DNA of 64,000 nt from an uncultured Gammaproteobacteria bacterium. Lineage in GTDB: Bacteria > Patescibacteriota > Patescibacteriia > Magasanikbacterales > GWA2-37-8. The position numbers were made by a program, and so were the translations under genes. The stretch is from NCBI GenBank assembly GCA_964478235.1, contig CAYZGX010000005.1, forward strand, positions 246 through 64,245. Reading direction: 5' to 3'. Shown in pieces: positions 36,311 to 63,938 of this stretch. The notes beneath the pieces were generated by a model. That model saw nothing but the letters and a program-made list of their open reading frames with translations. It searched no databases and was not told the DNA's origin. The first letter of the stretch is position 1. Each line of letters begins with the position of its first letter.

Positions 36311-36319
36311 AGTGTGTAA

Positions 36320-37774: not shown

Positions 37775-37786
37775 TCCGCACAACAA

Positions 37787-37820
37787 ATAAAAACCAGCCA
37801 CATTTGGCTGGTTTTTTGTT
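37787..37820. terminator. bidirectional rho-independent terminator between convergent era and ctpA
   Basis: AAAAACCAGCCACATTTGGCTGGTTTTTTGTT. Confidence 0.85.
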
Positions 37821-37826
37821 ATCTAC

Positions 37827-39077: not shown

Positions 39078-39082
39078 ACAAA

Positions 39083-40405: not shown

Positions 40406-40490
40406 TTCTTTGACTGAGAAGTCTTTTTATGATAGTAATAAGTATACTCTATTCGCCTTCTTTTGGCAAACCTTTGCTTAAAAACCTCGT

Positions 40491-41828: not shown

Positions 41829-41840
41829 CCTTCTTACACT

Positions 41841-42248: not shown

Positions 42249-42280
42249 AAAATCTCCCCGAGTCGGGGAGATTTTTCTTT
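42246..42280. terminator. bidirectional rho-independent terminator between convergent rnhA and dnaJ
   Basis: AAAAAATCTCCCCGAGTCGGGGAGATTTTTCTTTT. Confidence 0.85.
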
Positions 42281-43359: not shown

Positions 43360-43362
43360 ACC

Positions 43363-43791: not shown

Positions 43792-43858
43792 AGTATGACA
43801 AGCTACTAAGTAAACAGCCAACCCCGACAAGTGTCGGGGGCAGCGTCTCATCAGTATA

Positions 43859-45757
43859 CTAAGCTTGTGGTTTATCGTCCACCACTTCGCCTTCAATCGG
43901 ACCATCTTTCTTTGGTTCACCACCAGGAGGGGTTGCGCCCTTAGCTTGCTCAGCTTGATACATTTTTGTACCAATCACCTGAGCCGCTTTGGAAAGCTCG
44001 TCGCCCGCTTGTTTGATGGCTTCAGCATCATCTTTGTCTTTCACTTCTTTTACTTTAGCGAGAGCGTCGTTGACCGCTTTCTTTTCATCGTCGGTTACAA
44101 CAACTTTTTTCTCATCAATTTCTTTCATCATTTTTTCAGTGGTATACACCATAGTATCGGCGATATTACGTGCTTCGATAAGTTCTTGTTTTTTCTTATC
44201 ATCAGCAGCATGAAGCTCAGCGTCTTTTTTCATCTTTTCAATTTCTTCTTTACTAAGACCAGAGGATGATTCAATCTTGATAGATTGTTCTTTGTTGGTC
44301 GCCTTGTCTTTGGCTTTCACATGCAAAATACCGTTGGCATCAATATCAAACGACACTTCAATTTGCGGTACGCCACGAGGAGCTGGAGGAATACCAGCAA
44401 GCTCAAATTGACCGAGTACTTTATTATCGTTAAACATTGGGCGTTCACCTTGGGCGACGCGAATAGACACCGCTGGCTGGTTGTCAGCCGCTGTCGAGAA
44501 CACTTGGGATTTAGAAGTTGGGATAGTGGTGTTTCGTTCAATGAGTTTGGTGAAAACACTGCCCATTGTTTCAAGACCAAGAGATAGCGGGGTGACATCG
44601 AGGAGTAACACATCTTTAACATCGCCTTTGAGCACACCACCTTGCACAGCAGCACCAATTGCCACTACTTCATCTGGGTTCACGCTAATATTTGGTTTCT
44701 TACCAAAGAATTTTTCAACTGTTGAATAGACCAACGGCATACGAGTCATACCGCCGACCATCACAATTTCATCAATTTTAGAGATTTCCAATTTCGCATC
44801 TTGCAAAGCGAGCTTCACCGGGCCCATACTCTTTTCTACAAAATCGTGGACCAATTCTTCGAGTTTCGCACGAGTAAGTTTGAGATCCAAATGTTTTGGA
44901 CCATTCGCATCAGACGAAATAAATGGTTGGTTGATTTGTGTTTCTTGAGAAGTAGACAATTCAATCTTAGCTTTTTCAGCCGCTTCTTTGATGCGACCAA
45001 GCGCCAACATATCTTTGCCCAAATCAACACCATCAGATTTCTTGAATTCATCAATAATCCATTGCATGATGCGCTGGTCAAAGTCGTCACCACCAAGGTG
45101 AGTGTCGCCATTTGTCGCGAGCACCTGCACTGAATCTTCACTCACTTCCAAAACAGACACATCGAAGGTACCACCACCGAGATCGTACACCACAATTCGC
45201 TGATCTTTCTTTTTATCAAAACCATAAGCGAGAGCAGCGGCAGTTGGCTCGTTAATAATACGGAGCACATTCAAACCGGCAATTTCACCAGCCACTTTGG
45301 TAGCCGAGCGTTGCGCGTCGTTGAAATATGCTGGCACCGTGATAACCGCTTCAGTGATTTTTTCACCAAGACGCTCTTCGGCATCAGCTTTGAGCTTGGA
45401 GAGAACCATCGCCCCAATTTGTTCTGGAGCAAATTTCTCGCCATTCATCAAAATACGAACGCCTTCACCTTCTTGGGTAATTTCATACGGCAAAGAGCCT
45501 TTGGTGCGAGATACTTCAGCATCACCAAAACTGCGGCCAACCATGCGTTTTGCCGAGTAAATAGTGTTCTTTGGGTTGGTGACAGCCTGGCGTTTTGCCA
45601 ATTGACCGACCAAACGCTCTCCACTTTTGGAGATAGCCACCACCGAAGGAGTGGTACGAGCCCCTTCTTTGTTTTCCAAAACTTTCGGCTGACCACCTTC
45701 AATGATAGCCATGCACGAGTTTGTTGTACCTAAATCGATTCCGAGTACTTTTGACAT
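43859..45757 (-). CDS. dnaK: molecular chaperone DnaK (Hsp70)
   Basis: [24 protein letters not shown] motifs; 632 aa. Confidence 0.97.
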
Positions 45758-45775
45758 ACAGTGTGTAATAAGTAA

Positions 45776-46219
45776 TTATTTTTTATCTTTTTTAACAATC
45801 TTCACCGCTACCTTTTTTGTTTCCACCGAAGTTACTTTCGGACAAGAGATTTTGAGCATCCCGTCTTCAAACTCGGCTGAAACTTTGTCTTCTAAAACAG
45901 CGGTTGGGAGCGGAATAGTGCGATAGAACGAACCGCTACGAACTTCTTTACGGTAATAATTCTTTTCATCAACTTCATGCTCGCTATTGCTTTCACCTTT
46001 GATACTGAGCATCCCCTGTTGCACATTGACTTCGACATTTTCTGGCTTTACCCCAGCAAGTGGCATCTCAACGATAAGCGCCTTATCGTTTTCATACATA
46101 TTAATCGCCGGTACAAACGCCTGAAGCGAAGTGCTGCCGCTAACAGCCGGGAGGCGATTAAACATATCATCAATTTCACCAAACGGATCCATCATCGGAG
46201 TCCAACGAATGAGTGACAT
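45776..46219 (-). CDS. Hsp20/alpha-crystallin family small heat shock protein
   Basis: Alpha-crystallin domain (DKALIVEMPLAGV...GMLKISCPK); start at ATG 46219. Confidence 0.85.
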   Translation of the reverse strand: MSLIRWTPMMDPFGEIDDMFNRLPAVSGSTSLQAFVPAINMYENDKALIVEMPLAGVKPENVEVNVQQGMLSIKGESNSEHEVDEKNYYRKEVRSGSFYRTIPLPTAVLEDKVSAEFEDGMLKISCPKVTSVETKKVAVKIVKKDKK

Positions 46220-46238
46220 ATATAAAAAATTAAATGAA

Positions 46239-46751
46239 TTATTCGGCAATAATGACTTTAGCAACTTTGACCACGCGACCAGCCATAGTGTATCCCCCAT
46301 CAACTTCACGGAGAATCGTGCCCGGAGCTTTGTCGCTTTTTTCTTGCCCCGCTGATTCATGGAGCTTTGGATCAAAGGTTTCGCCAACAGTTTTAATTTC
46401 TTCCAGCTTATGTGCTTTAAAGACTTCGGCGAAGAGTTTCATAATAAACCCAACACCCATCACCCAATTCTTTATCTGCTTATCTTCACTCGCTGGTGGC
46501 TGACCAAACGCTTTTTTAAAACTATCGTACACAGGGATAAACTCTTCCAAAATCTGAATTTCACTCATCGACGCCCATTCTTGGCGACGACTAGCAGTTT
46601 CTTTTTGTAAATTAGCGTAATCGGCGAGAGCGCGTTGCCAACTCACTTTATATTCATCTCGCTCTTTCAAAGCTTGCTCGAGCGGATCAGGTGTTGATTT
46701 CTCAACCGGCGCTTCAACAACCTCTTCTTGTTTATTTTGTTCGTCTGACAT
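46239..46751 (-). CDS. grpE: nucleotide exchange factor GrpE
   Basis: RALADYANLQKETASRRQ coiled-coil and C-terminal beta domain. Confidence 0.9.
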   Translation of the reverse strand: MSDEQNKQEEVVEAPVEKSTPDPLEQALKERDEYKVSWQRALADYANLQKETASRRQEWASMSEIQILEEFIPVYDSFKKAFGQPPASEDKQIKNWVMGVGFIMKLFAEVFKAHKLEEIKTVGETFDPKLHESAGQEKSDKAPGTILREVDGGYTMAGRVVKVAKVIIAE

Positions 46752-46757
46752 ACGGGT

Positions 46758-47447
46758 TTAAATAAGTTCACGAATTTTTTTAAGCAAACTCCAATTATGT
46801 TTGTAATTCATGCGTTGCGGGCCAAGGAGAATAAGAAGCGATTCACCGTTCTCACCCAATCGAGTCGCTACGCAGGATAACATTTCACCAAACGGATGAT
46901 CACTACCAAGGTAACAGCGCGGTGTGTTGTCGGTACTGTCATAAAACCGCGGTAAATATTCTTCACAACGATCAAACACTCGCGAAACATTAGCCACCAA
47001 CTGCATTTCTGCAAAATCTGGCTTACTAAACAAATTAGACAAACCAGTGTAATACATTTTTTCAGAAGAAAAAGCGAGAATAGCTGTTTCACCGGACAAA
47101 GCAACCAATGTTTTTGCCAAAAGTTTATATTTAGCTTCGGTATCAACTTCTGCCCCGAGAGTTTTTTCAAGCGCACCCATTTCTGCTTTTGATACTTTTA
47201 ATTTTTCCGGAGAGATGGTGTCGATATAAAAACGGTACCCATCAATTGTCGGGATACGCCCCGCTGAAGTATGTGGGTGCGTCAAATAACCAGCTTCTTC
47301 CAAAGTGCGAAGTTCGTTCCGCACTGTGGCTTCGCTCCAATCAAGCCCGCCGACTTCAACCAAAAATCGTGACCCTACCGGTTCGGCAGTGGCCACATAC
47401 TGTTCAATCACGAGTTCAAGTAATTTTTGCTGGCGTTCTTCTAGCAT
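46758..47447 (-). CDS. hrcA: heat-inducible transcription repressor HrcA (short form)
   Basis: N-terminal winged helix (RQQKLLELVIEQYVATAEPVGSR); operon position and CIRCE upstream. Confidence 0.8.
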   Translation of the reverse strand: MLEERQQKLLELVIEQYVATAEPVGSRFLVEVGGLDWSEATVRNELRTLEEAGYLTHPHTSAGRIPTIDGYRFYIDTISPEKLKVSKAEMGALEKTLGAEVDTEAKYKLLAKTLVALSGETAILAFSSEKMYYTGLSNLFSKPDFAEMQLVANVSRVFDRCEEYLPRFYDSTDNTPRCYLGSDHPFGEMLSCVATRLGENGESLLILLGPQRMNYKHNWSLLKKIRELI

Positions 47448-47448
47448 A

Positions 47449-47493
47449 CTTAGCGCTCAAGTGTCGTTAGCACTCAATAGTTCTGAGTGATAA
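47449..47493. promoter_or_regulatory. CIRCE operator (TTAGCACTC-N9-GAGTGaTAA) plus an upstream extra half-site TTAGCGCTC
   Basis: 47467-47493 TTAGCACTCAATAGTTCTGAGTGATAA matches the CIRCE consensus TTAGCACTC-N9-GAGTGCTAA with one mismatch; sits directly upstream of hrcA. Confidence 0.85.
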
Positions 47494-47556
47494 TATAGCG
47501 CTCCCCCACCAACCTGTCAAGAGCCCATCTATACACAGCAGACTTGGCTAAAATTA

Positions 47557-47592
47557 AACAAAAAAGCCCCGTTATACAGGGCTTTTTATTCA
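47557..47592 (-). terminator. rho-independent terminator downstream of SPFH gene
   Basis: AAAAAAGCCCCGTTATACAGGGCTTTTTATT. Confidence 0.75.
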
Positions 47593-47610
47593 ACAAAGCA
47601 ATCCGCTACA

Positions 47611-48183
47611 TTACGAGTGAATAGATTGAATTTCAGAAAGCAAGACATTTTCTACATAAATCCCACGAGAGTAGAAAATACGCTCTAATTCATTTTTAAT
47701 TTCTGTTTCTACCTGATCGCGTTTTGCACCAACGATATCGTTGTAATCAAAACGACTCACTACCATACGAATACGACTGCGAATAGCTGGGCGAACAATT
47801 TTCGCGACGAAATCTTCACCAATTGTCTGCCAAATACTTGGCACCTGGTGAATATCTAAGCGAAGAAGAATAGTCCCCTCCACACCAGCACGCTTACCAT
47901 CTTGGGTAACAGTCGCAATTGGAATGTCGCCGAGTGAACGTTCGTGTTCAGGGTTAAATTGGCGAGAAATACTGTATTCCAATGTTTGTACATTGAAAAG
48001 TTTAGCTTTCTGCCAAAACGGAATCTTGAGGTGAAGACCTGGGGTCAACACTTTCTTCAAAACACCGCGACCAAGGTCGTACACACAAGCAACATAGCCC
48101 GGTGGTACATAGATAAACAAACCCTTGAGCACGTCATCAACAACGAATGAATACATCAATTTGTCTAAAGATTCGGCAGCCAT
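47611..48183 (-). CDS. SPFH/band-7 domain protein (short)
   Basis: SPFH-like core; 190 aa; no clear N-terminal TM. Confidence 0.65.
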   Translation of the reverse strand: MAAESLDKLMYSFVVDDVLKGLFIYVPPGYVACVYDLGRGVLKKVLTPGLHLKIPFWQKAKLFNVQTLEYSISRQFNPEHERSLGDIPIATVTQDGKRAGVEGTILLRLDIHQVPSIWQTIGEDFVAKIVRPAIRSRIRMVVSRFDYNDIVGAKRDQVETEIKNELERIFYSRGIYVENVLLSEIQSIHS

Positions 48184-48203
48184 AGATAAAGACAGTTAAA
48201 AAA

Positions 48204-48926
48204 TTAATGGTGACTTGATCCGTGCGCTTCAGCCGGCGCTTTCTTTTTGAAGAAAGCGTGACGAAGCAAACTAATCACGTCAGAAAAAATCATGGTGGTC
48301 AAGATAAACAGCGATTTGACCATCGGCAAATACCAAAGCAAAGCAAAAGTGGCGAGCGGGAAAAAAATGAAATAATACATCTCAGATTTATTCCAAGCCT
48401 TTTTAGCTCGAGTTTCAATAACAATAGAACCAAGCAGATAGAGGGCTACAATCCCCGCCCAGATATAATCATGGGTATGGCCGATATCAAAACCATAGAA
48501 ACTAACATTTACCCGACCAGGAAAATCAACTGACGGATAGAGATTTTTCATCATCTTGTCGCCAGTAATACCACCAACGAACACTTGGTACAACAACAAG
48601 AAGATAACCGCCTGCACCCCAACCGACAAAGCTTTGGCCCATGGTGAGACTTTATATTTTTTCATGATTTTACGCACTACTTCTTGCTGTGCGACACGAT
48701 CATTTTTGTAGGCCTTGATAGCGAGAGCAGCTTCAGCTTCAGCTGTTTCACGACGCTGATCGCTTGATTCAGACAAAATAGTTAACGGCAATAAGACGAT
48801 GCGCAAAAAGACAGTTAACCAAATAACTGCCCAGCCAAGATTTTGGTCGGCAATGTTCGAGTAAATCCAAATCAACGCGTTAAATAACGGTTGATAGAAA
48901 AACGTGAACCAAAGCATTGAAAACAT
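48204..48926 (-). CDS. yidC: membrane protein insertase YidC/Oxa1 family (short Gram-positive type)
   Basis: QPLFNALIWIY...GWAVIWLTVFLRIVLLPLT conserved TM2 region, 5 TM, basic C-terminal tail. Confidence 0.8.
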   Translation of the reverse strand: MFSMLWFTFFYQPLFNALIWIYSNIADQNLGWAVIWLTVFLRIVLLPLTILSESSDQRRETAEAEAALAIKAYKNDRVAQQEVVRKIMKKYKVSPWAKALSVGVQAVIFLLLYQVFVGGITGDKMMKNLYPSVDFPGRVNVSFYGFDIGHTHDYIWAGIVALYLLGSIVIETRAKKAWNKSEMYYFIFFPLATFALLWYLPMVKSLFILTTMIFSDVISLLRHAFFKKKAPAEAHGSSHH

Positions 48927-49055
48927 AGATATATATTCAGTATACCAGCTCTGACACTAAAAAACTATAGTAGCGTTCACAGTATACCACAAAACAGCCT
49001 ATTTGTCAACGCTTCTGTGCCTTAAAAAATGGCTAAGATTAGAGGAAAGAAGCTC

Positions 49056-50246
49056 TTACACGATCATATCCCAGACATACTGGGCGACATTATTGGTTTT
49101 ACCAATCAAAGGCATGTGATGCAGATTGATAAACGGCACACCATTACACTCGATAATCCCCCATTTCTGCCCACCTGGATCTTTGGTAACATCGGCAATG
49201 ATGAAGTCAAAACCAATCAACGGGTCGCCAACTACCTTGGCTGCAGCTTCAAGTACCTCTTTGATAGCCGGATGTGTTTCGTCGGTTATTTCATAACTTG
49301 ACCCACCATACGACACTCCAATTTTTTCAGTCATATCAATCGTCGTGCCGGCAGGCAAGACTGTTCCTAACGTATAACCACTACGCGCCAAAAAATCGAG
49401 CGTCACCGGTGTAACCGGAATATCCTTAACTGGCGCAACCTTAAGAGTATTTTTTATCGTCACGAGCTCAGCAATTGTTTTAACTCCATCACCTGTCACT
49501 CGAGGCGGATCACCGCCCAAAACACCGCGCAAACGCCCATCAATCATCGTCCCGCGATAGACACTGCCCACCAAATGTTCCTCCACCACCACCCAATGAC
49601 ATAATTGTTTAGCGATAGTAAACGCTTCTCGAAGTTGATCTTCGGTATAAATAAAGGTTGTAGTATGACGCCCCCGCGAACCCAAGCGAGGCTTCACAAT
49701 CACCGGCTTTGAAGCCGTCGCAAACCAAGCTCGCGCCATTTCAAAATTAGAAAATCCACCACCTTGCGGAGCAGGCAAACCAGCTTCGCGCAGTCGAGTT
49801 TTCAAAATCGCTTTATCGTCCATCCACACGAGCGCTCGATTATCCACCTTTTTTGGACGAGGCAAACCATTAAAGTATAACGTCTTATCGTTTATTTTCG
49901 CTCGATAAAAATCTATCGGTCGCCCCATAAACTCAGCGCCTTCCATCGGTATCCCCCGCCGCTCCGCATCCTCCCAGAGCACATTCGCTCGAGCGATAGT
50001 GCATTTTTTCCTATCAGCATAAAAACGCACCAAGCCAACCAACCGAAACGAATGAAGCATACCATAAAGCACCAGATCAGTAAGCCAATTAAAAAATCGC
50101 CCAAACAACGAAGTGGCGAGAAAATAATTAAATGGTGTCATGACAACTACCAAAGTAGAGTTCACCCACGTGAGCGTGTGTGGTACCGGATTATTTCCGC
50201 AATACAAACATTTAGCTGGCATAAACAATCGGCAAAAGAGATTCAA
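49056..50246 (-). CDS. ATP-grasp ligase (RimK/cyanophycin-synthetase-like) with N-terminal TM segment
   Basis: ATP-grasp blocks VIVKPRLGSRGRHT, EEHLVGSVYRGTMIDG, GFDFIIADVT...IIECNGVPFINLH. Confidence 0.65.
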   Translation of the reverse strand: MNLFCRLFMPAKCLYCGNNPVPHTLTWVNSTLVVVMTPFNYFLATSLFGRFFNWLTDLVLYGMLHSFRLVGLVRFYADRKKCTIARANVLWEDAERRGIPMEGAEFMGRPIDFYRAKINDKTLYFNGLPRPKKVDNRALVWMDDKAILKTRLREAGLPAPQGGGFSNFEMARAWFATASKPVIVKPRLGSRGRHTTTFIYTEDQLREAFTIAKQLCHWVVVEEHLVGSVYRGTMIDGRLRGVLGGDPPRVTGDGVKTIAELVTIKNTLKVAPVKDIPVTPVTLDFLARSGYTLGTVLPAGTTIDMTEKIGVSYGGSSYEITDETHPAIKEVLEAAAKVVGDPLIGFDFIIADVTKDPGGQKWGIIECNGVPFINLHHMPLIGKTNNVAQYVWDMIV

Positions 50247-51615
50247 AAGGCTGAGACGGCAAAACCGGCTTTTCTCCTTGAACGATAGTATAGAACTCAG
50301 GCATCAAATTGTCGAGCGCTACCCCAAGAGGCAAGGTGCGAAGAGCGTCAGACATCGTCCGAGCAGTGGTCTGGTCGCCATACAGCATCAAATCAAGGGC
50401 GGTCGCGAGGACTCGTTCTTCCGTCTTCCCACCCGCTATATAACAAGCTATATCAGAGCTCAAAAAGTCAGCCCGCACGCTAGTCACTACCGTATCAAAG
50501 CATCCCATTTCAGCAAGAAGCGCTGACCAGGCGTCGCGCAATTCTGGCAAGTAATCAACTTGGCTAAACCCGCCGCCACAGGTGAGACCATAATAAAAAC
50601 TAAGGACAATAAACGACAGCGCCATGCTCGGCATCAAGACACCGGCTTGGAGCGCTTCGCCGACGGCTTCGGGCGTGAGCGCAACTTCCACCGTACCATC
50701 ATGCGACACTAGCTGACCATCTTTGATGATCAGTGGAATACGAAGAGTTTTGTATAACCCCCAAAACAAATACGTCCCCCGCTGAGTGAGCGAGGTAAAC
50801 GAGCCCACCAACCCGTCAAAATGACGAACAAAGGCATCGCGCCACAGAGGGTTAAACAGTAATTCAAAAATAACTGTCGGCGTTTGCAAATGAAAAGAAA
50901 CAATCAGATCAGCCACCATTCGCTCCTGAGGAATATAGAGCATATTAGTGGACTGTTCGCCCGGCACTTGTTTCCACAAAATATAATTAACCAAACTTAA
51001 TTGATCGGCAAACGACCCTTGCATCACCACTGCTGGAGAAGCAAACACTCGCTCCAGCGCATACGACGGCGCCGAAGGTAGCAACGCTTCACATTCTAAA
51101 GTAAATCGCTCCAAATCATCCAAGGTATACGGAAACAAGCCATACACCGACCCAGCGCGATATTTCCACGGCAAAACATGCGCCCGAGATTCTTCGAGCG
51201 TCGCCGTATGCCAAAAAACACCACGGGGAAACGAGGAATTATTCAAAGAGATACTAGCGCAAGAAAAAACAATCACGTTATTACATCCGCGCGACCGATT
51301 CACCAGCGCTTGCGCAGTAGAACCACTCACCACAAAGGGATGGCACACTGGGGCATGGTGTTCGGCTGTAGAAACATACCACTGCTCCTCGAGCTGAAGT
51401 GCTGCTTCGCGCGCCACCGACGAGCCAAACAAACGAGTCGCCTCATGTTCAAAAACCGATAACAATTCCTGCTTTCGCTCTTTTGGGACAACAGTCGGCG
51501 CTGACCAGGCACTATCAAAATACGAAAAAACGCTCATGTCACCATGTTCACGAATAATCTTTTTAAGCCCCGGCTTATGTACCAAGACCACGCGCCGTAC
51601 TTCGTCGAGTGTCAT
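50212..51615 (-). CDS. hypothetical 467-aa protein, translationally coupled to the ATP-grasp gene
   Basis: Long ORF with no recognisable motif; its 3' end overlaps the ATP-grasp ORF start by 35 nt. Confidence 0.5.
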   Translation of the reverse strand: MTLDEVRRVVLVHKPGLKKIIREHGDMSVFSYFDSAWSAPTVVPKERKQELLSVFEHEATRLFGSSVAREAALQLEEQWYVSTAEHHAPVCHPFVVSGSTAQALVNRSRGCNNVIVFSCASISLNNSSFPRGVFWHTATLEESRAHVLPWKYRAGSVYGLFPYTLDDLERFTLECEALLPSAPSYALERVFASPAVVMQGSFADQLSLVNYILWKQVPGEQSTNMLYIPQERMVADLIVSFHLQTPTVIFELLFNPLWRDAFVRHFDGLVGSFTSLTQRGTYLFWGLYKTLRIPLIIKDGQLVSHDGTVEVALTPEAVGEALQAGVLMPSMALSFIVLSFYYGLTCGGGFSQVDYLPELRDAWSALLAEMGCFDTVVTSVRADFLSSDIACYIAGGKTEERVLATALDLMLYGDQTTARTMSDALRTLPLGVALDNLMPEFYTIVQGEKPVLPSQPFESLLPIVYAS

Positions 51616-51629
51616 AGGCTACGCTAGTA

Positions 51630-52976
51630 TTATCTAAACGAAGAGATAAAATCATGAACGCGGGTATCGAGCCAAACATGCTCTGGACCAACTGGGCGTT
51701 TGAGTACCAAGCCCTCAAGCGATGTGGCACGAGACAGTGCAACATATAATTGCCCCGGAGAAAATGTCCCTCGCCCGATATCCACAATCACATTATCAAA
51801 CGTTTTACCCTGACTTTTATGAATCGTAATCGCCCAGGCCAAACGCATTGGGTATTGAGTAAACGATCCCACCGATTCTGATTCAATCTTGCCAAGATCG
51901 CGATTAAAACTAAACGAGTAAATATCCCATTGATGACGCGTCACTCGGACCGTCTCCCCTGTTTCGAGCTCCACCGACAAAATCTGTGGTGCTCGTTTAT
52001 CTGTTGTATCATCTTCCACACTCTTAATCACCCCAACCGTGCCATTAATCCAGCGCCCCGATACATCATTGTTAAGCATCATAACCTGCGCCCCCACCTT
52101 AAGATGAAGTTCGCTCTCTGTTGGTAAATATTTAGCGTCAAATGTCCCCTGTGTATCCCCGCGATATACCAGCTCCTGACCTTTGAGCCGAGCCAGTGCT
52201 TCGTAGTTAATTTCATCAGCCGCTTTGTTGGTGGTGGTGAGTGTTACGTACACATTATTTTTCGGCGGAACAAACGATCTATCCAAACGCTTGTTAAGAG
52301 CCGTATACACACTTTGGTCAGCTGTGTTGGTTCGGACAGCGTTAAGTAGGGCAATAAAAGCGGCATCACGTTGACGATACACTTTTTCTAATTCCACACA
52401 CTCCATTTTGAGCGGATCAACTGCAAATAAATCACGCTTCTTCGGACTAATCGCATGCGCTGAGAAAAAATACGGACTTTCATAATGCTCACGAAACGCC
52501 GACGATTCATCGTTGGTAGTCACCGGTGGCAACTGATAGAGGTCGCCGATAAAAATCATTTGCACTCCACCAAATACCATCCCCTTCTTTGGACCATGTA
52601 GGCGCAAAAAAGTATCAACACAATCAAGCACATCAGCTCTGACCATGGAGATTTCATCAATCACGATAGCTTGTAATTTTCGATAGAGCTCATCGCGCCC
52701 ACCCACTTTAATCTTGCGCACTTTTTCCACGGTAATATCTGGTTTGAAACGAAAAAATGAGTGGATAGTTTGTCCAGCAATATTCACCGCCGCCACCCCC
52801 GTTGGAGCGAGGAGAACGACATTTTTTACCGTATGTTTTTTAAAATGATTGAGAAGCGTGGATTTCCCTGTGCCAGCTCGCCCCGTGACAAACACATGTT
52901 TAGTAGTGTTTTCCATGAGATGCAGGGCCTCTTGAAAAGCCTCGTTCAGATCAACAGTCGTTTTGAGTCGTGCCAT
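51630..52976 (-). CDS. PIF1/RecD-family SF1 DNA helicase
   Basis: Walker A GRAGTGKST, LAPTGVAA, VIDEISMV, QLPPV, C-terminal ALSRA motif characteristic of Pif1-like helicases. Confidence 0.8.
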   Translation of the reverse strand: MARLKTTVDLNEAFQEALHLMENTTKHVFVTGRAGTGKSTLLNHFKKHTVKNVVLLAPTGVAAVNIAGQTIHSFFRFKPDITVEKVRKIKVGGRDELYRKLQAIVIDEISMVRADVLDCVDTFLRLHGPKKGMVFGGVQMIFIGDLYQLPPVTTNDESSAFREHYESPYFFSAHAISPKKRDLFAVDPLKMECVELEKVYRQRDAAFIALLNAVRTNTADQSVYTALNKRLDRSFVPPKNNVYVTLTTTNKAADEINYEALARLKGQELVYRGDTQGTFDAKYLPTESELHLKVGAQVMMLNNDVSGRWINGTVGVIKSVEDDTTDKRAPQILSVELETGETVRVTRHQWDIYSFSFNRDLGKIESESVGSFTQYPMRLAWAITIHKSQGKTFDNVIVDIGRGTFSPGQLYVALSRATSLEGLVLKRPVGPEHVWLDTRVHDFISSFR

Positions 52977-53002
52977 ATCGTTCCACTATACACTAAGTAT
53001 TC

Positions 53003-53257
53003 TTAATCGCCAAACAGGGCTTCTTTTTCTGCTCGACGCAGGCGCTTTATAGCCACCTCCCGTTTCAAAGCCCCCGAGCGAGTGGCAAATTTCTGAGAAT
53101 AGACGAGAGTCACCGGTCGACGAGCGCGGGTATACTTCGCCCCTCGTGACGACGTGTTGTGGGCGACCACACGACTAGCTATATCAGTGGTAAAACCAGT
53201 ATACAGCGTTCCATCGTGACAACGCACAATGTACACATAAAAGACTTTTTTAGACAT
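53003..53257 (-). CDS. GIY-YIG nuclease domain protein (UPF0213-like)
   Basis: FYVYIVRCHDGTLYTGFTTDIASRVVAHN...AKYTRARRP...LVY matches the GIY-YIG consensus. Confidence 0.8.
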   Translation of the reverse strand: MSKKVFYVYIVRCHDGTLYTGFTTDIASRVVAHNTSSRGAKYTRARRPVTLVYSQKFATRSGALKREVAIKRLRRAEKEALFGD

Positions 53258-53262
53258 ACCCA

Positions 53263-53460
53263 CTACCTCTTCAAAAGCTCCATAATAAACGCTCTCGTCC
53301 CCGCAGCAAATTTACCGGTCCCTTTGGTGAGGCCAAGCGGGGTGAGAATTGACTTAGCGTTCGCTTCTTGGAAGCGAATAAGGGCGAGTCGAGTGGCCGA
53401 GCCAAAATAGTTAGTTTCTTTACCTGGTGACCCTGGGCCAGATTTAGCGACGGTGAAACC
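53263..53460. repeat. about 200-bp segment near-identical (about 3 mismatches) to 56919-57116 (3' ends of the two giant genes)
   Basis: Direct comparison of the two sequences; divergence rises sharply further upstream. Confidence 0.85.
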
Positions 53461-56400
53461 AAGAGCGTTTAACACTCGCTGCAACAATCGAACCTGGGTG
53501 TCATTCATACCGAGCTGCAATACTTTGGTGAGACGAGCGGTGCCAAGAGCCTGCTTGAGAGCGTTAATCGACAGAGTTTGAATGGAGGGTACCAAAGGAA
53601 CAACTGGTTTAGCCATCGTTGAGGTTGCAGGGGATGTTGAAGTAGCTGGAGTAATAATTTGCACCGTTGTCGTTGTGGTCGGAACAAAAACCTCTTGGTC
53701 AGAATAGCCAACAAGAGGTGGACTTGAACCGCCATAGGACGGAGTTGCAACAGTCGTCGCCGAAGGAGGAACGAAAGACAATGTCACGTTGCTTAGAACT
53801 GGACTTGTAACCCCACTCGAAGAAGTTAAATAGGCTTTATACTGAACAAATTGATCGTCAACACCATCAGTAAAAGCTGAATTAAGCACTTCTCCACCAG
53901 AAGTAACAAAATACGTTGAGGTGGTATTATCTGGGCCAACCCATTCAGCAGCATCCAATGTGGTAGTAGTATTCCCCGTTCTAATCTGAAAACGAACCGT
54001 CGTGCTAGTTGAGGTGGCCGCCGTCCATTCCAAGCTATCTATAACACTTGCCGAATTACTACTGTCGTAGACCGAAGAGATTAATGTGCCAGACGAAGTG
54101 TACGACACAAAATTAAAAGTGAGATTCTTTAATTGTGGTGATTTGGTTGTGTCAGAAGTAGACAAAAATGCTTTATACTTTACATACTTTGCAGCCGTAG
54201 TCAGCCCCTCAGCCAAAGTTGAAGAACCGGTTGTAAAATAGGTACTCGCTGTTCCGTCAGTTCCAAAAAAACTTGAGTAACTAACATTGTCTGTTGATGT
54301 GGCGATCTGTAAACGAAGAGAGTCACTACCAATAGATCTAGGCGTTGAAGATGACCAGCTGAAACTGTACGGTCGAGTACCGTCAAAAGAAAAAGGGGCT
54401 GAAGTAAAATTACCAGAAGACTGATACGTTTTTTGATTAATGACGTATTTAATGTAGGCAGTACTTGTATTGCTGGTATACAGATGATAGTAAAAAGAAC
54501 TATGATCTGCATCGGGTATAAGGTACCCGCACGCCCCAGTAGGAAAAGGCATCTGCGGTAACACTTGCCAAGCAGAAGAGGTCTCAGATAGTGGGTGTCT
54601 CCAAAAACCGGTGGCCGCACTAGTACCTTGAACAACATACGCAAACCCATCAAGAATAGTGAGGGAGGCACAGGAACTGAGCGTGCCAGGCAGAGTTGAA
54701 AATGTATCCCAAGCACTCGATGTGTTAGCCAACGTATGGCGATAAAACGCCGTACCCCCATTACGCATAACATACAAATAGTCATCATCAATGCCCATAT
54801 ATTTGTTACCAACAAAAGTAAAGATATTTGCTGGAGTATTAGCTAGTGATTCCCATGGAGTTGAGGTGTTGGTCAACACATGACGATAGGTACTCGACGT
54901 ATTTCCACCACGCAGTACGTAAACATGATCATTGCTAAAAGAAATAGACGCAGCATTACCAACAGCTGCTGGTAAATCAACAAAAACATCCCATGGAGAA
55001 GAGGTGCTGTTGATATCGCGTCGATACAAACTTTTTGCAGAACCAACTGCTCCAGGAAGATAGTAGAAATAGCCATCTCGTATTTCCGCTGAGCCGTATT
55101 GCCCTGTAGTTGTTGGTAGAGTAATGTAAGATTCCCAAGCACTCGACGTATTGGCTTTAGTATGCCGATACAGGGCGTCAGCTCGTAGTGCTGCTAAAAA
55201 ATAAACATAATTATCGTCACTTAAAATAGCCACACCGTTGCTAACGGTAGCAACTGTTGTGGGAAATCCACTAGTTGTTGTAATAGTGGCAAAAATTTCC
55301 CAAGGGGTTGAAGTAAGAGCGTAGTCGCGCCGATAAAACTGAGAGCTGCTCGCACCAGCATACATATAGTGATCATCAACATGAAAAGAGATGCCGGATA
55401 AAAAAGGAAGGTTCTGGATAAAATGATTATCTAGCCCACCAATCCAATTACTTGAAGTGTTGGTGAGCACATGTCGATACATAGCGGTATTACCACCGCC
55501 TTGTATAACATGAATAAATGAATCATCAACTGCCAAAGCAGCGCCTGCTCCCGGCGTTGCAGGAAGTGAAGAAAAGAGCTCCCAAGCCGTAGATGTTTCT
55601 GACAAAGTATGTCTAAGAAATTGCGCAGCACCGCTGCGTAACATGTAAATATAATTAGCATCGACAGCAATAGCCCCACCAGCCGAAAGACCATACGGCG
55701 TAGTGGAAGCAAAAAAATCCCAAGGTGTTGAGGTATTGCTTAATTCGTGACGATATGTGGTCGTAGCAAAGCCAGTGGTCGTACCGAGAAGAATATATAT
55801 ATAATTAGCATCAATCGCAGCCGTACTTCCCGTTGTAACAATTTTAGGTAGCACCGCAAAAGGTTCCCAAGCGGTCGATGTTGCCGACGTTGTGTGACGA
55901 TACGACGTAGTCGCATTACCTGTAAACACATACACATAGTTAGAATCGGCCAACAATTGACCGCCAGTACTAACGCTGGCTGGCAATACAGTAAATGATT
56001 CCCACGATGTAGAAGTATTGGCCAGAGTGTGGCGATAAAATGCTGTACTACTTCCTCGTAAAACATAGAGGTATTGACTGTCAATTGCCAGGCCAGTTCC
56101 AGTACCTGTCGCCCCAGGCAGAGCTGTAAATGATTGCCATCCAGCCGAAGTATTAGTTATCGAATGACGGTAGACATCGGTACTAGTACCACGTAATACA
56201 TACAAATAATCTGAATCAATTGCCAAAAAGACGGTCGAACCAACTGTTGCTGGTAAATCAGAATACGAAACCCAGGTATTATTAGTTGTATCGAAACGAC
56301 TCATCTTACCAACAAAGCTGGTGCTGGTTGAGTGTAGTACGTACACATACGTACCCGTGACCGCCATATCACTAATACCAACCGTGCCAGGGATTGGCGG

Positions 56401-56811
56401 ATAGGGAACTTCAAAAGCATCAACCTGCACTTCAGTAGTCGTAGCGAGAGAAATAAAACCAGTGGCATTCAAATTAGAATACCGTAATTGCAACTGACTA
56501 AGTGTACCATTCAAAAAACCACCGCCTGTCACCACGCCAGACAAAGTTGAAGTAACATCATCAACAGCAGGAAAATAAGACGCTGAAAGACGCAAATTTC
56601 CAATATTTCCAAAATCTATATTCGTTGAAGTTGAAAAATACAACCACCCCGTCCGATCACCCGGATCAACTGCTGCCGTCGAAGTTGTGTCCCCACTCCA
56701 ATCAGCTTGATAAAATGCCACTGAAGTAGCGGCATAAACAATTTGTTGAACAGAGACAAAAAAAGCTAAAAAAGAGAGGAGACCTAATAAAAAAACACGA
56801 GGAAAAGACAT
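53263..56811 (-). CDS. giant secreted/anchored Kelch-like-repeat surface protein with C-terminal peptidoglycan-binding (PG_binding_1-like) domain
   Basis: 1182 aa. N-terminal signal/TM. More than 16 copies of an approximately 46-aa unit (YLYVLRG-x-ST-x-YRH-x-L-x-NTS-x-W-E/D-x-F-x-x-LP-x-G-x-A-x-D) resembling divergent Kelch blades. Two jelly-roll-like middle modules. Thr/Pro linker. C-terminal VLQLGMNDTQVRLLQRVLNALGF...GKETNYFGSATRLALIRFQEANA. Confidence 0.85.
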   Translation of the reverse strand: MSFPRVFLLGLLSFLAFFVSVQQIVYAATSVAFYQADWSGDTTSTAAVDPGDRTGWLYFSTSTNIDFGNIGNLRLSASYFPAVDDVTSTLSGVVTGGGFLNGTLSQLQLRYSNLNATGFISLATTTEVQVDAFEVPYPPIPGTVGISDMAVTGTYVYVLHSTSTSFVGKMSRFDTTNNTWVSYSDLPATVGSTVFLAIDSDYLYVLRGTSTDVYRHSITNTSAGWQSFTALPGATGTGTGLAIDSQYLYVLRGSSTAFYRHTLANTSTSWESFTVLPASVSTGGQLLADSNYVYVFTGNATTSYRHTTSATSTAWEPFAVLPKIVTTGSTAAIDANYIYILLGTTTGFATTTYRHELSNTSTPWDFFASTTPYGLSAGGAIAVDANYIYMLRSGAAQFLRHTLSETSTAWELFSSLPATPGAGAALAVDDSFIHVIQGGGNTAMYRHVLTNTSSNWIGGLDNHFIQNLPFLSGISFHVDDHYMYAGASSSQFYRRDYALTSTPWEIFATITTTSGFPTTVATVSNGVAILSDDNYVYFLAALRADALYRHTKANTSSAWESYITLPTTTGQYGSAEIRDGYFYYLPGAVGSAKSLYRRDINSTSSPWDVFVDLPAAVGNAASISFSNDHVYVLRGGNTSSTYRHVLTNTSTPWESLANTPANIFTFVGNKYMGIDDDYLYVMRNGGTAFYRHTLANTSSAWDTFSTLPGTLSSCASLTILDGFAYVVQGTSAATGFWRHPLSETSSAWQVLPQMPFPTGACGYLIPDADHSSFYYHLYTSNTSTAYIKYVINQKTYQSSGNFTSAPFSFDGTRPYSFSWSSSTPRSIGSDSLRLQIATSTDNVSYSSFFGTDGTASTYFTTGSSTLAEGLTTAAKYVKYKAFLSTSDTTKSPQLKNLTFNFVSYTSSGTLISSVYDSSNSASVIDSLEWTAATSTSTTVRFQIRTGNTTTTLDAAEWVGPDNTTSTYFVTSGGEVLNSAFTDGVDDQFVQYKAYLTSSSGVTSPVLSNVTLSFVPPSATTVATPSYGGSSPPLVGYSDQEVFVPTTTTTVQIITPATSTSPATSTMAKPVVPLVPSIQTLSINALKQALGTARLTKVLQLGMNDTQVRLLQRVLNALGFTVAKSGPGSPGKETNYFGSATRLALIRFQEANAKSILTPLGLTKGTGKFAAGTRAFIMELLKR

Positions 56812-56817
56812 AGTAGA

Positions 56818-56827
56818 GGGGGGGGGG
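56818..56827. repeat. homopolymeric G10 (C10 on coding strand) tract 6 nt upstream of the giant-protein-1 start codon
   Basis: Read directly: ...CCTG-C10-TCTACT-ATG on the minus strand. Confidence 0.9.
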
Positions 56828-56915
56828 CAGGAACAACCAGAAAAATAAAAATCGCTTACTTATTTTATCAAAAATAATGGGAAGAAGCAATTGGTCAAGA
56901 TTTTTAAACTAAACG

Positions 56916-59900
56916 CTAGCGCCGAAGCAAGTCCATAATAAACGCTCTCGTCCCCGCAGCAAATTTACCGGTCCCTTTGGTGAGGCCAAGCGGGGTGAGA
57001 ATTGACTTAGCGTTCGCTTCTTGGAAGCGAATGAGGGCGAGTCGAGTAGCCGAGCCAAAATAGTTAGTTTCTTTACCAGGTGACCCTGGGCCAGATTTAG
57101 CGACGGTGAAACCAAGAGCGTTCAGAGCGCGCTGGAGAAGGCGGACTTGTGAATCCACAGTGCCCGTTTGAAGAACTTTAGTGAGGCGAGCAGTGCCGAG
57201 GGCTTGTTTGAGAGCGACGACGGGTGCGAGGGCTACCCCTGGCGATGTAGGTTGAGTTGGGATAACTGGTGCGACTTCTGGTAAGACTGGTGACACAACT
57301 GGTTCAGTGGTTGTTGGGGCTACCGGTAGTGTTGAAGTGGCAGGGGTAGTGGTTGGAGCGACGACTACCACGGTAGTCGTCGGCGTAGAGACAGCTGCCT
57401 CAAGATCTGAGTAGCCAATCAAAGGCGGGCTTGAACCGCCGTATACTGGAGCTGAATTGTTCGGAGGAATAAACGACAGAGCAACATCACTCAAAACAGG
57501 ACTCGTCGCTCCACTTGAAGAAAAGAGAGCTTTGTACTGTACAAATTGATCGCCAGCCCCGTCGGTAAATGCTGAATTAAGTGTTTCACTACCCGAAGTA
57601 GAAAAATACGTTGAAGAAGTATTGTCTGGACCAACCCATTCAGCCGCGTCCAAAGTTATTGTGCTATCCCCTGTTCGAATTTGAAAACGAAGGGTGGCGC
57701 TCGCTGAGGTAGTGCCTGTCCACTCTAAACCAGAAATCTTACTTCCAGAATCATTACTATTATACACTGACGAAATAAGCGTACCGCTCGCCGAATAGGC
57801 CGAATAATTAAAGGTAATATCTTCTAAACGCGGAGAAAAATCAGTATTATCAGTGCTCAAATACGCTTTGTATTTAAGATATTGTGTAGGGGCAGTTATT
57901 GCGCCGGTCAAAGTTGTCGACCCGGTCGTAAAATAAGTACCAACTGTCCCGTCGGGGCCAAAATAACTGGAATAAGTACTATTATCTGACGAAGTAGCTA
58001 TTTGTAAACGAAGCGCTGAGCTTCCGGTGACAACCGGAGTTGAAGATGACCAGCGAACACTCTCAAGACGAGCTGCGCCAAGTGACAAAGCGGGTGAAGT
58101 AAAATCACCAGAAGAAGAATAAACTAAATCATTAACAACAAATCTAAATATTAAATCAGACGAGCTACCACAAATAAGATAAATAATATCTTTATCCTGC
58201 GAAAAAACCATACCACCACCATTACTCACACTGCATGGTTGAGCTTGAAGAACCTCCCAAGCAGTAGAGGTGCTCGCCAGAGTATGTCGCCAAAAACCAA
58301 CCCCCGAACTATTCCCTTGTAACACATACGCATAAGTATCGGTCAGAAGAACAGTCGCTCGAGAAGCAGTGTTACCCGGCATAGCAGTAAACGATTCCCA
58401 AGCACTAGAAGTGTTAGAAAGCACATGCCGATAAAACCCCGTACTCCCACCTTGTACAACATACAAATGAGTATCGTTTATAGCCATCAACGAATTTGAT
58501 CCAGCGGCGACAGAAACATTTCCTGGCAAATTAGTGAAAGTATCCCACGCCGTGGAAGTGGAATTAAGAGCGTGGCGGTAGGTGCTTGAAGTAGAGCCAC
58601 CGCGCACCACATACACATAGTCGTTATCAAAAACAAACGAAGCTCCTCCGCCCATAGCAGCGGGCAGTGCCGTAAATGACTCCCACGCAGACGAAGTTAC
58701 CGCCGAAAGATGGCGGTACAACCCAGTTTTTTCAGCTGTATTTCCTTGAAGGAAATAAAGGTAATCACCGTTAACAGCTATTGAGGCGGTTGACCCTGTT
58801 GAAGTTGGAGCTGCAGCATACGAATCCCACGAAGATGTCGGTGTAGCCGACAAAGATCGACGATAAAAACCGGTTGTCGACCCAAGCATGGCATAGGCAA
58901 AATTTTCATCAACAACCAACGAAGTTCCATTGCCCAAGGTAGCGGCCGGCGCTGTTGAAGACGCCCAAGCCGAAGTCGTACTTATCAAATCATGCCGAAA
59001 AAATCCTATTGCCGGAGAAGAACCAGCTAATACATACAAATTGTTTTTATTAATAGAAAAGGTAGGCAAAGCACCGCCACCAACAAGAGCGGGCAGTGGG
59101 GGGAAATTTGGCGATGTTGACCCAATCCAAGCGCTTGATGTGTCAGATATAGCATGTCTCGCTATACTTGTTGGATATGCAAATACATGCAAAAAATCAG
59201 TGCCAAGAGATAAGCCAGCGGCTGTAGAAGAAAACGCCACGGTAGATGTTATTGTATCCCAAGCGCTTGAAGTATTAGCTGTGGTATGGCGATATACCTG
59301 AGCCGCTGAGCCACGGGAGAAAAATAAATAATTAGCATTAACCTCCAAACCACTGACAGTGGCGGCAGCGGCCGGAAGTGTTGTAAACGCCTCCCAAGCT
59401 GAAGATGTATTTGTTAAATCATGACGCAAAGTTGTAGTTCCCGCTCCACCAGCTGCCGTGCTAGCAATAACATACAAATAATTAGCATCGAGAGCTGCCT
59501 GCGAACCAGAAGTCACTACATACGGTAAATTAGTGAAAGCTTCCCACGAAGTAGAAGTGCTTGTTTTTGAATGACGATAGGTTGTGCTAACACTATTGCC
59601 CGGAAGAACATACAGATAATTGGCATCGACCAATAATTTACCCCCACTACTCAATGTCGAAGGAAGAACTGTAAATGAATCCCATGAAGCCGAGGTATTT
59701 GAAACAGCATGACGATAAATATTTGTACTAGAACCACGAGCTACATAGAGATAAGTTTCATCGACAACTACAGCAGCGGCTGTCCCAACTGAGCCGGGCA
59801 GCGCAGTGAACGACTCCCACCCTGCCAAAGTATTAGAAATAGCATGACGATAAAAACTCGTACCAGTACCTAGCAACAGATAGATATAAGTGTCATCAAT

Positions 59901-60551
59901 AGTCATGGTCACATTAGTACCAGCAGCTGACGGCGAATCAGTGTAAGAAGCCATTACATTAGCGGAGTAATCATAGCGGTGCACCTTAGCTACAAAACTT
60001 GTACTCGTAACCTGCAGTATATATATATAAGTGCTTGTCGCAATAATTTTTCCATTCAATCCCATTTGACCGGGGATAGCTGGCACAAGACTATCAAATG
60101 CATTAATTGCAACTTCAGTCGTAGTTGCAAGCGCAACATAACCAGTCGTATTTAAGCTCGAGCGCAGAAGCTGAACCTGATTGAGGGTGCCACTCAAAAA
60201 CCCACCACCAAAAGCAAGGCCAGAGTAAGTAGAGGTGATATCATCAACAAACGAAAACGTTGATGAAGTCAGGCGAAGAGCGTTCGTGATGGTAAAATCA
60301 AGGTAGGTTGAAGTAGAATAGCCATTCCAACCAGTACGATCGGTTGGATCACTGGCGGCAGTTGAGGTAACTCCCCCACTCCAACTTTCCTGATAAAAGG
60401 CAACTGATGTGGCGGCAAGAGCAATTTGTTGGGCTAAAAATACAAAACCAAGAATAGCTACAAAACCAAAAATAAGACTATTTTTAATGGTCTCGGAAAA
60501 GAATCTAGCGATAGATAATTTTGAGGAAATTTTAGATAATAGCAATTTCAT
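56916..60551 (-). CDS. giant secreted/anchored Kelch-like-repeat surface protein, paralogue of 53263-56811, with C-terminal peptidoglycan-binding domain
   Basis: 1211 aa; same architecture and the same YRH/NTS/W/LP/LYV repeat; C-terminal about 70 aa nearly identical to the downstream paralogue. Confidence 0.85.
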   Translation of the reverse strand: MKLLLSKISSKLSIARFFSETIKNSLIFGFVAILGFVFLAQQIALAATSVAFYQESWSGGVTSTAASDPTDRTGWNGYSTSTYLDFTITNALRLTSSTFSFVDDITSTYSGLAFGGGFLSGTLNQVQLLRSSLNTTGYVALATTTEVAINAFDSLVPAIPGQMGLNGKIIATSTYIYILQVTSTSFVAKVHRYDYSANVMASYTDSPSAAGTNVTMTIDDTYIYLLLGTGTSFYRHAISNTLAGWESFTALPGSVGTAAAVVVDETYLYVARGSSTNIYRHAVSNTSASWDSFTVLPSTLSSGGKLLVDANYLYVLPGNSVSTTYRHSKTSTSTSWEAFTNLPYVVTSGSQAALDANYLYVIASTAAGGAGTTTLRHDLTNTSSAWEAFTTLPAAAATVSGLEVNANYLFFSRGSAAQVYRHTTANTSSAWDTITSTVAFSSTAAGLSLGTDFLHVFAYPTSIARHAISDTSSAWIGSTSPNFPPLPALVGGGALPTFSINKNNLYVLAGSSPAIGFFRHDLISTTSAWASSTAPAATLGNGTSLVVDENFAYAMLGSTTGFYRRSLSATPTSSWDSYAAAPTSTGSTASIAVNGDYLYFLQGNTAEKTGLYRHLSAVTSSAWESFTALPAAMGGGASFVFDNDYVYVVRGGSTSSTYRHALNSTSTAWDTFTNLPGNVSVAAGSNSLMAINDTHLYVVQGGSTGFYRHVLSNTSSAWESFTAMPGNTASRATVLLTDTYAYVLQGNSSGVGFWRHTLASTSTAWEVLQAQPCSVSNGGGMVFSQDKDIIYLICGSSSDLIFRFVVNDLVYSSSGDFTSPALSLGAARLESVRWSSSTPVVTGSSALRLQIATSSDNSTYSSYFGPDGTVGTYFTTGSTTLTGAITAPTQYLKYKAYLSTDNTDFSPRLEDITFNYSAYSASGTLISSVYNSNDSGSKISGLEWTGTTSASATLRFQIRTGDSTITLDAAEWVGPDNTSSTYFSTSGSETLNSAFTDGAGDQFVQYKALFSSSGATSPVLSDVALSFIPPNNSAPVYGGSSPPLIGYSDLEAAVSTPTTTVVVVAPTTTPATSTLPVAPTTTEPVVSPVLPEVAPVIPTQPTSPGVALAPVVALKQALGTARLTKVLQTGTVDSQVRLLQRALNALGFTVAKSGPGSPGKETNYFGSATRLALIRFQEANAKSILTPLGLTKGTGKFAAGTRAFIMDLLRR
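56919..57116. repeat. second copy of the near-identical 3' segment
   Basis: See 53263-53460. Confidence 0.85.
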
Positions 60552-60687
60552 TAAAACAGATACTAAACCACTGCTAGCATATCAAAAAAACAAGGTCAAA
60601 ACAATGGAAAAAAGGGGGATAAAAAGACACACCTCTCGTTAAAAAAGAGGTGCGTCTTGCTGATTGGAAGCCTGCTGAAAAAAAATC

Positions 60688-61098
60688 TTAGGAAACAGCG
60701 TCCTTTTTGAGCAAAAGAGGTAAAAGACGATTTTTACCCTGCCACAAGAAGTACAAATTAAGAAGAAGCATTACATTGCCCATAACTGCTCCGCCAGTGA
60801 GGAGTCCACCATCGAGAAAAGCATGAAAACCAACGATATTAAGCGTAATCGGTAAAAGAAGAAAAGCGGCGAGAGCTGTTCGATCTATCCAGATAAGCAC
60901 CAAGCTGATCGCAAAAACCAAGGACATGAGGTAGTTAATGTACTTTCCCTGCATCAGCGCCTCAATAAAGGCAAACGCTTCTTTTGAGGTGTACATATCA
61001 GCTGTTGGCGGTGGGAAAATCCCTAGCACCCCCAGCAGTGGCATAATTAAAATCAGACTCAAAAGAACCTTGAGAAAGATAGTCAGATATTTTTTCAT
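60688..61098 (-). CDS. small polytopic membrane protein (DoxX-like?), function unknown
   Basis: About 136 aa from ATG 61098 (MKKYLTIFLKVLL...), 3-4 TM; the ORF-track extension to 61155 begins with TTG. Confidence 0.5.
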   Translation of the reverse strand: MKKYLTIFLKVLLSLILIMPLLGVLGIFPPPTADMYTSKEAFAFIEALMQGKYINYLMSLVFAISLVLIWIDRTALAAFLLLPITLNIVGFHAFLDGGLLTGGAVMGNVMLLLNLYFLWQGKNRLLPLLLKKDAVS

Positions 61099-61155
61099 AG
61101 AGTATATAAAATAATTAACACATATAGTGTACAGGACAGGGTATAAATAGGGCAA

Positions 61156-63056: not shown

Positions 63057-63938
63057 TTAGCGTACCGGCAAAATCTTTCCTGCTGCGACTTGGGCCTCAA
63101 AGGTGTCGAGCAAAAAATCGCATACGGTCTTTGCTGCATTCACGACGAGCTTGGCATGCCGACGAGCAGGCCGATAGAGTAGTGGATGCGAATCGCTCAT
63201 TCTGTTTCGGATAGGAGCAAGTCCAGAAACAATGTTGGTCAACCCGGTAAGAACGAGATGAAACGGTTGGTTTTCAGGCGTCTTTGGATCGATGTTCAGA
63301 GCGATCTGGACACGTCTCATTAATTGGCCCAGTTCGCCATTGTAGGGAGGTGGTGAGAGGACGGCACGTCGTTCCATCTCCTGAAGGACAGTCTCAACTA
63401 AAGTTCTTGCCGAAGTGATCGCACCAGTAAAATCATCGCCGAGCAGGCGCGTTTCCGATTTTTCAACGTGTTCATGGATAAATTCGTGTGATAACGGATC
63501 CAACCCGCCGCTCCTCGCTTCCATAGAAACGAGCCCTTCGTCCGCACGTCGAACTACATAGCCACTTTTCCCCTCTAGAAGTGACCACCCATCTCGCTCA
63601 AGATAACGCCTAACGTAGTCTACCGCCGTGTCGATCGAAATATTGTGGTCCTGAAAATACGCAGGGTCGAGGGCTGCCGCAACCATCGGCTCAAAATGTG
63701 GAGTTCCGACTAGGGAGCGTACACGTTCCTCGGCGAGCATCCATCGTGATTTTCCACCGCTTCCCGAATAAACATCATTGAAGCCGAACTCATTGAAGAA
63801 CCGCAAAATCTCCGGTCCCGTCCGATAGGGTGCAACGGCCGGCTTGTGAACTGACACCCAGTCTCCTGTAATTACTTTTTGAATCGCCTCGATTGTCTTT
63901 TCCGAAACCATGGGCTTCGCGGTCTGTGAGTTTGTCAT
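63057..63938 (-). CDS. Abi_C/HEPN-like abortive-infection-type protein (AbiJ-like architecture)
   Basis: C-terminal block IVSGLAPIRNRMSDSHP contains an Rx4-6H motif (RNRMSDSH), as in HEPN/Abi_C domains; N-terminal region is unassigned. Confidence 0.55.
   Translation of the reverse strand: MTNSQTAKPMVSEKTIEAIQKVITGDWVSVHKPAVAPYRTGPEILRFFNEFGFNDVYSGSGGKSRWMLAEERVRSLVGTPHFEPMVAAALDPAYFQDHNISIDTAVDYVRRYLERDGWSLLEGKSGYVVRRADEGLVSMEARSGGLDPLSHEFIHEHVEKSETRLLGDDFTGAITSARTLVETVLQEMERRAVLSPPPYNGELGQLMRRVQIALNIDPKTPENQPFHLVLTGLTNIVSGLAPIRNRMSDSHPLLYRPARRHAKLVVNAAKTVCDFLLDTFEAQVAAGKILPVR

Follow-up and report, generated by a model that had tools for sequence, protein, structure and literature searches.

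A run of ten cytosines (C10) lies just ahead of the ATG in the downstream gene of a tandem surface-protein pair, within a 64-kb stretch of DNA (the whole stretch analysed, hereafter the window). The explanation that we tentatively prefer is that this run is a slippage-prone leader tract, variable in length within the population, which possibly tunes expression of the downstream paralogue in a graded manner at a translation start that does not depend on a Shine-Dalgarno (SD) sequence. In this sense the tract is a plausible candidate for an expression switch of a type already known. The window encodes DnaB, ClpB, MurJ, LepA, RecJ, CTP synthase and the DnaK/DnaJ/GrpE set, which identifies it as part of a cellular chromosome, and its DnaK is 76-81% identical to that of MAGs labelled Candidatus Magasanikbacteria or Magasanikiibacteriota, with other best matches also in Patescibacteria. 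The source is an uncultured, ultra-small bacterium of the Patescibacteria (CPR), close to Magasanikbacteria. Scanning the window for Rfam families and tRNAs gave no matches. Also encoded are an abortive-infection C-terminal domain (Abi_C) protein (63057..63938, - strand) and a TrwB-like type IV coupling protein (1340..3130, - strand).

The poly-C tract and the paralogous surface proteins

The features around the tract are as follows.

53263..56811, - strand: downstream paralogue, 1182 aa, with a signal peptide (MSFPRVFLLGLLSFLAFFVSVQQIVYA/A), Kelch/NANM-like repeats and a C-terminal PG_binding_1
53275..53469, - strand: 3' coding segment of the downstream paralogue, with 98% DNA identity to 56929..57122 of the upstream paralogue
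56812..56817, - strand: 6-nt spacer TCTACT from tract to ATG, which gives the genome-typical start context of C at -2 and T at -1
56818..56827, - strand: C10 homopolymer (C8 in an independent ENA assembly)
56916..60551, - strand: upstream paralogue, 1211 aa, with the same architecture as the downstream one

The tract is G10 on the + strand and C10 on the - strand, where the sequence running into the start is ...TTCCTG-C10-TCTACT-ATG and the longer reading across the tract is ...TTTTCTGGTTGTTCCTG-CCCCCCCCCC-TCTACT-ATGTCTTTTCCT.... With exactly 6 nt between it and the ATG (56811..56809) of the downstream paralogue, the tract occupies positions -16 to -7 relative to the start codon, in a gap of 104 nt (56812..56915) that separates the two genes. 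An earlier note on this DNA had placed a C10 run 6 nt upstream of an ATG and between two giant paralogues; the sequence agrees exactly as to position, and the two proteins are indeed paralogues, while "giant" overstates proteins of 1.2 kaa.

Over their full length the two tandem proteins are 52% identical, and each consists of an N-terminal signal peptide (cleaved in the downstream paralogue at MSFPRVFLLGLLSFLAFFVSVQQIVYA/ATS), a long array of Kelch/NANM-like repeats and a C-terminal PG_binding_1. Judged from these sequence features, both should be secreted, cell-wall-binding proteins, and the downstream paralogue, having all three elements, is a surface gene of the sort that a contingency locus controls, which bears out the claim that a surface-protein gene follows the tract. 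Although the two proteins have diverged overall, their genes share 98% DNA identity over the last ~195 nt, which suggests that the PG-binding 3' ends may have been homogenised by recent gene conversion. Tandem, diverged paralogues with a homogenised 3' end are a common pattern in variable surface-protein families, and this favours the reading of the run as a leader tract. The protein family itself is rare, with 5 relatives at E<=1e-10 in a single-sequence search and 18 at E<=1e-20 in a profile search. Between the upstream regions of the two paralogues no homology was found except a shared TTGACC.

C10 is the longest G/C homopolymer within the window, followed by G8 at 22937..22944 and then by four 6-mers. 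With the instability threshold for G/C simple-sequence repeats set at a run of 7-8 or more, both the C10 of the window and the C8 of the ENA assembly qualify, which upholds the claim that the tract is long enough for slippage. The chance expectation for a 10-mer is 0.06 per 64-kb window, and a G/C 10-mer was present in 5 of 100 dinucleotide-preserving shuffles of the window, so that the run is unusual, not extreme; with roughly one expected per Mb, it is unremarkable for one genome. These numbers favour another explanation, in which the tract is neutral and hypermutable, having arisen by chance or drift in a pyrimidine-rich spacer and slipping (C8, C10) with no meaningful effect on expression. 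This explanation is somewhat doubtful, and nearly as likely as the tuning of expression through the leader. Against it stands the placement of the two longest G/C runs of the window, C10 and G8, both of which are intergenic and immediately 5' of gene starts.

The G8 run (+ strand) precedes a HAD-hydrolase gene, at a distance of 13 nt from its ATG (22958) and of 7 nt from an in-frame TTG (22952). On the - strand, a C6 run (731..736) forms part of the spacer of a canonical promoter, TTGAAA-17-TATACT, which ends 8 nt before the ATG of the ORF at 89..706 (- strand).

Tract length in a second assembly and in relatives

The exact protein of the downstream paralogue is also encoded in an independent assembly of the same organism, ENA ERZ4216102, on contig NODE_1231 (k-mer coverage 4.7), where the tract is C8 as opposed to the C10 of the window. 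When the overlapping contigs NODE_1231 and NODE_994 were compared with window positions 11116..61119 (49,123 bases compared), 10 single-base substitutions and one true indel were found, the latter being the 2-nt difference in the tract. A second apparent indel, at 47707..47735, proved to be a 10-N scaffold gap in the ENA contig. Unchanged in the same span were 121 6-mers, 33 7-mers and 4 8-mers of A/T, as well as 41 5-mers, one 6-mer and one 8-mer (the G8 at 22937..22944) of G/C. Since these ~200 other homopolymers are invariant and C8/C10 is the sole true indel, the indel is clearly tract-driven. The unchanged G8 is at the same time a point against the leader-tract reading.

All 10 substitutions are transversions, six of them of the C>A/G>T type when the window is read against ENA, a pattern more suggestive of damaged DNA or of errors from low coverage than of natural variation, with at least one of the two consensus sequences imperfect. 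The k-mer coverage of the ENA contigs is ~4.3 to 4.7 and both assemblies look low-coverage; taken with the error-like substitutions, this means that the calls of tract length are not robust. The same two observations, low coverage and substitutions that point to errors in at least one assembly, support the explanation that the tract is real and stable, and that the C8/C10 difference arose in vitro, through PCR or sequencing slippage or through the choice made in a low-coverage assembly. This is unlikely, though a serious rival: to differ by 2 nt, the tract must have slipped twice, or the two consensus sequences must err in opposite directions, and no other homopolymer differs over 49 kb, the G8 and the A/T 8-mers included. 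An artefact of poly-G read tails was rejected, the run being shorter than the assembly k-mers and the flanks on both sides being identical in the two assemblies. Given that the difference is one of 2 nt, pure error appears less likely than real heterogeneity as its source, a judgement that rests on two low-coverage assemblies. Of the proposal that the tract varies by slippage, the difference in length and its standing as the sole indel in ~49 kb hold, and the low coverage of the assemblies weakens it.

Searches with the protein, with the flank pattern and with an N-terminal alignment recovered no orthologous upstream region from genome or metagenome contigs: the scan of genome contigs with the protein gave no relatives, the scans of metagenome contigs with the flank pattern and with the N-terminal alignment gave 0 matches each, and a protein search with the N-terminal 140 aa alone gave no matches. 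The contigs of two closer relatives, L002 (P0002; 77% aa identity) and L087 (P0015; 84% nt identity, syntenic), break inside the gene and carry no upstream region. In L089 and L090, two distant homologues whose 5' ends are intact, the promoters are ordinary and a tract is lacking; a family-wide link to such tracts was rejected on these grounds, and the lack of a tract in distant family members is also what would be expected if the tract were neutral.

A further distant homologue, L086 (P0005, ENA ERZ4903137), has a G14 inside its coding region (7166..7179), followed by two in-frame stops and then by family sequence in the same frame. It was considered as a working switch and rejected, as no tract length removes the two stops and restores the ORF; L086 is a pseudogene or a low-quality or poly-G assembly artefact.

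Transcription and translation start of the downstream paralogue

Three features of the gap between the paralogues bear on how the tract would be transcribed.

56812..56915, - strand: intergenic region between the paralogues, pyrimidine-rich, with no terminator-like hairpin and no significant RNA structure
56842..56871, - strand: P2, TTGATA-18-TATTTT, sigma-70-like, a consensus match with a putative transcription start near 56835
56871..56898, - strand: P1, TTGACC-16-TATTTT, sigma-70-like, a consensus match only

A scan of the - strand for sigma-70-like consensus sequences gave these two sites, against 0.4 expected in shuffles. Both lie wholly upstream of the C10 tract, and neither the consensus scan nor manual inspection gave a plausible hexamer pair flanking it. 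It had been proposed that the tract forms a promoter spacer, and this is contradicted by the position of P1 and P2 and by the lack of a -35/-10 pair around the tract. With both promoter-like sites upstream, transcripts would include the tract, which, for a start at P2, would take up about +8..+17 in a leader of ~24 nt; read-through from the upstream paralogue gene would likewise transcribe it.

The terminator scan found no terminator-like hairpin in the gap, and the structure of the intergenic RNA is not significant (z = -0.46). Modelled with three alternative 5' ends, leaders show no change in predicted minimum free energy from C5 to C14, and the tract remains unpaired throughout. An RNA structural switch was therefore rejected, predicted leader folding and start accessibility being constant across C5 to C14. 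That length has no predicted structural consequence, and that no SD or promoter element is interrupted by the tract, again fit a neutral, hypermutable run.

Elsewhere near the pair, a hairpin (CACCTCT...AGAGGTG) followed by a T-rich stretch was seen by eye at 60600..60660 (- strand), 3' of the ORF at 60688..61155; it may be the intrinsic terminator of that ORF, while the terminator scan reported none there. The upstream paralogue has a -10-like TAGTAT 8 nt before its ATG, with A as base -1, and given this short distance may be leaderless, unlike the downstream paralogue.

The lack of an intrinsic terminator between the paralogue genes, the pyrimidine-rich, unstructured leader (the intergenic RNA is C-rich and G-poor) and the position of the tract just after the putative P2 start are all compatible with control at the level of transcription, where the intergenic RNA would load Rho (at a rut-like site) or make RNA polymerase pause or slip, and the length of the tract would set read-through from the upstream paralogue or escape from P2. 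This explanation is purely inferential, and rut sites normally span about 80 nt as opposed to one homopolymer, so that we regard it as highly unlikely.

With respect to translation, the genome makes very little use of SD sequences. Among 35 ATG-initiated genes of the window, a single one has an SD-like motif (GGAG, GAGG or AGGA at -20..-5). What these starts share is their immediate context, with T at -1 in 32 of the 35 and G or C at -2 in 25 of the 35, and T at -1 was also found at all 37 dnaK starts examined in related Patescibacteria MAGs. In several first genes the ATG follows a TATACT-type -10 box at a distance of no more than 8-12 nt, which points to mRNAs that are leaderless or have very short leaders. 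The downstream paralogue keeps the start context of the genome (CT-ATG) and has no SD, and the suggestion that the tract sits at a ribosome-binding site is thus not borne out; nor is there an SD whose spacing to the start could be altered by the length of the tract. In the other genes of the window, positions -16..-7 are A/T-rich; here they are filled by the tract. As these positions fall inside the ribosome footprint, their unusual composition speaks against a tract that is merely neutral.

The tract could also be envisaged as an intragenic frameshift switch, in which translation would begin further upstream, at a TTG (caaTTG; 78 nt from the ATG at C9), and both C8 and C10 would be OFF for the long form. 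A length of C6, C9 or C12 opens the TTG frame, adding an extension of 26 aa in which the tract encodes prolines, and this extension (...DKISKRF...) is faintly like the longer N-terminus of the upstream paralogue (...SKISSKLSIARFF...). However, the likeness is short and of low complexity, with serines from different codon classes, T at -1, seen in 32 of 35 starts, is missing from both upstream TTGs, the protein read from the ATG has a textbook signal peptide as it is, and neither C8 nor C10 is in frame. Such a switch is most improbable, and the tract lies upstream of the ATG rather than within the translated ORF.

Under the preferred reading, that of a leader tract tuning translation, the C10 run would be a simple-sequence repeat prone to slippage and transcribed as part of the downstream paralogue's 5' leader; its length would drift in the population (C8, C10), presumably in vivo. 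It would lie within the stretch of mRNA that is covered by the 30S subunit, in a genome that initiates without SD pairing, and for these two reasons changes in length would most likely tune translation initiation, of the downstream paralogue alone. A change in length would alter both the distance and the composition between the U-rich leader (UUUUUAUUUUU) and the AUG, and graded expression would be expected rather than a clean ON/OFF output. We infer both the effect of tract length on expression and the transcription start. Of the ON/OFF switch that the earlier note had proposed, the surface gene, the slippable tract and its C8/C10 difference between assemblies remain; ON/OFF behaviour is unproven, and expression could just as well respond in a graded way or not at all.

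A bolder version of this reading, which we consider distinctly unlikely, is that the locus is a genuine contingency locus in CPR/Patescibacteria, in which poly-C in the ribosome-docking zone of an SD-less leader stochastically sets translation of one of two tandem, cell-wall-anchored paralogues. If true, it would be a case of surface variation driven by simple-sequence repeats in an episymbiotic lineage, through an undescribed SD-independent mechanism of initiation. CPR bacteria are mostly uncultured and are thought to be attached to hosts, and to our knowledge the means by which they vary their surfaces are largely unknown. Searches of the literature turned up no homopolymer-based phase variation in CPR/Patescibacteria. 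Confirmation would provide a concrete, testable surface paralogue under tract control, a known kind of system in a new lineage, and also a route to studying how mRNAs without SD sequences are recruited to ribosomes in the CPR lineage. Should the tract be neutral, or the difference in length an artefact, the locus is an ordinary one.

Comparison with known homopolymer systems

Several bacterial systems are known in which a homopolymer upstream of a surface-protein gene varies by slipped-strand mispairing. Among the promoter-spacer homopolymers are the poly-C tract of Neisseria opc, the poly-G tract of porA and the poly-C tract of Bordetella fim, which separate the -35 from the -10 or an activator site from the -10. 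The tract of the window is like these in being a poly-C/G tract upstream of a surface-protein gene, as opposed to which both of its promoter-like sites are found wholly upstream of the tract, with none of it between -35 and -10 hexamers. Another example is found in Treponema pallidum, where the poly-G tracts of tpr subfamily II are variable and act on promoter activity around the transcription start. This is like the present case in that a G/C homopolymer closely precedes surface-protein genes that are paralogues, in a bacterium that is uncultivable and has a reduced genome, and it is different in that the effect of the window tract would probably be on the leader or on translation rather than on the promoter. 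The C10 tract lacks the defining features of the promoter-spacer, SD-spacing, structural-switch and intragenic classes.

In Mycobacterium tuberculosis, the poly-G tract in the 5'UTR of espR undergoes recurrent single-nucleotide indels with a post-transcriptional (translational) effect; this tract is 144 bp upstream of the gene and re-folds a hairpin that masks SD sequences (PMC11898584). The window tract is likewise a G/C homopolymer within a transcribed leader, while differing from espR in lying 6 nt from the AUG, in a genome without SD sites, and in having no predicted change of structure, so that it is not a 5'UTR structural switch of the espR kind. In Moraxella catarrhalis, a G(n) tract upstream of the uspA1 ORF is reported to have a graded effect on expression (PMC7302503 and its ref. 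20). The likeness lies in a poly-G/C tract, 9 to 12 long, ahead of the gene for a large surface adhesin, and in an output that in uspA1 is graded (high/low) rather than ON/OFF, as it is expected to be here. The effect in uspA1 is exerted at the mRNA level by a tract far from the start codon, and M. catarrhalis, unlike the organism of the window, is a proteobacterial pathogen with ordinary SD usage. The homopolymers in the leader of espR and upstream of uspA1 are mechanistically the nearest counterparts of the C10 tract.
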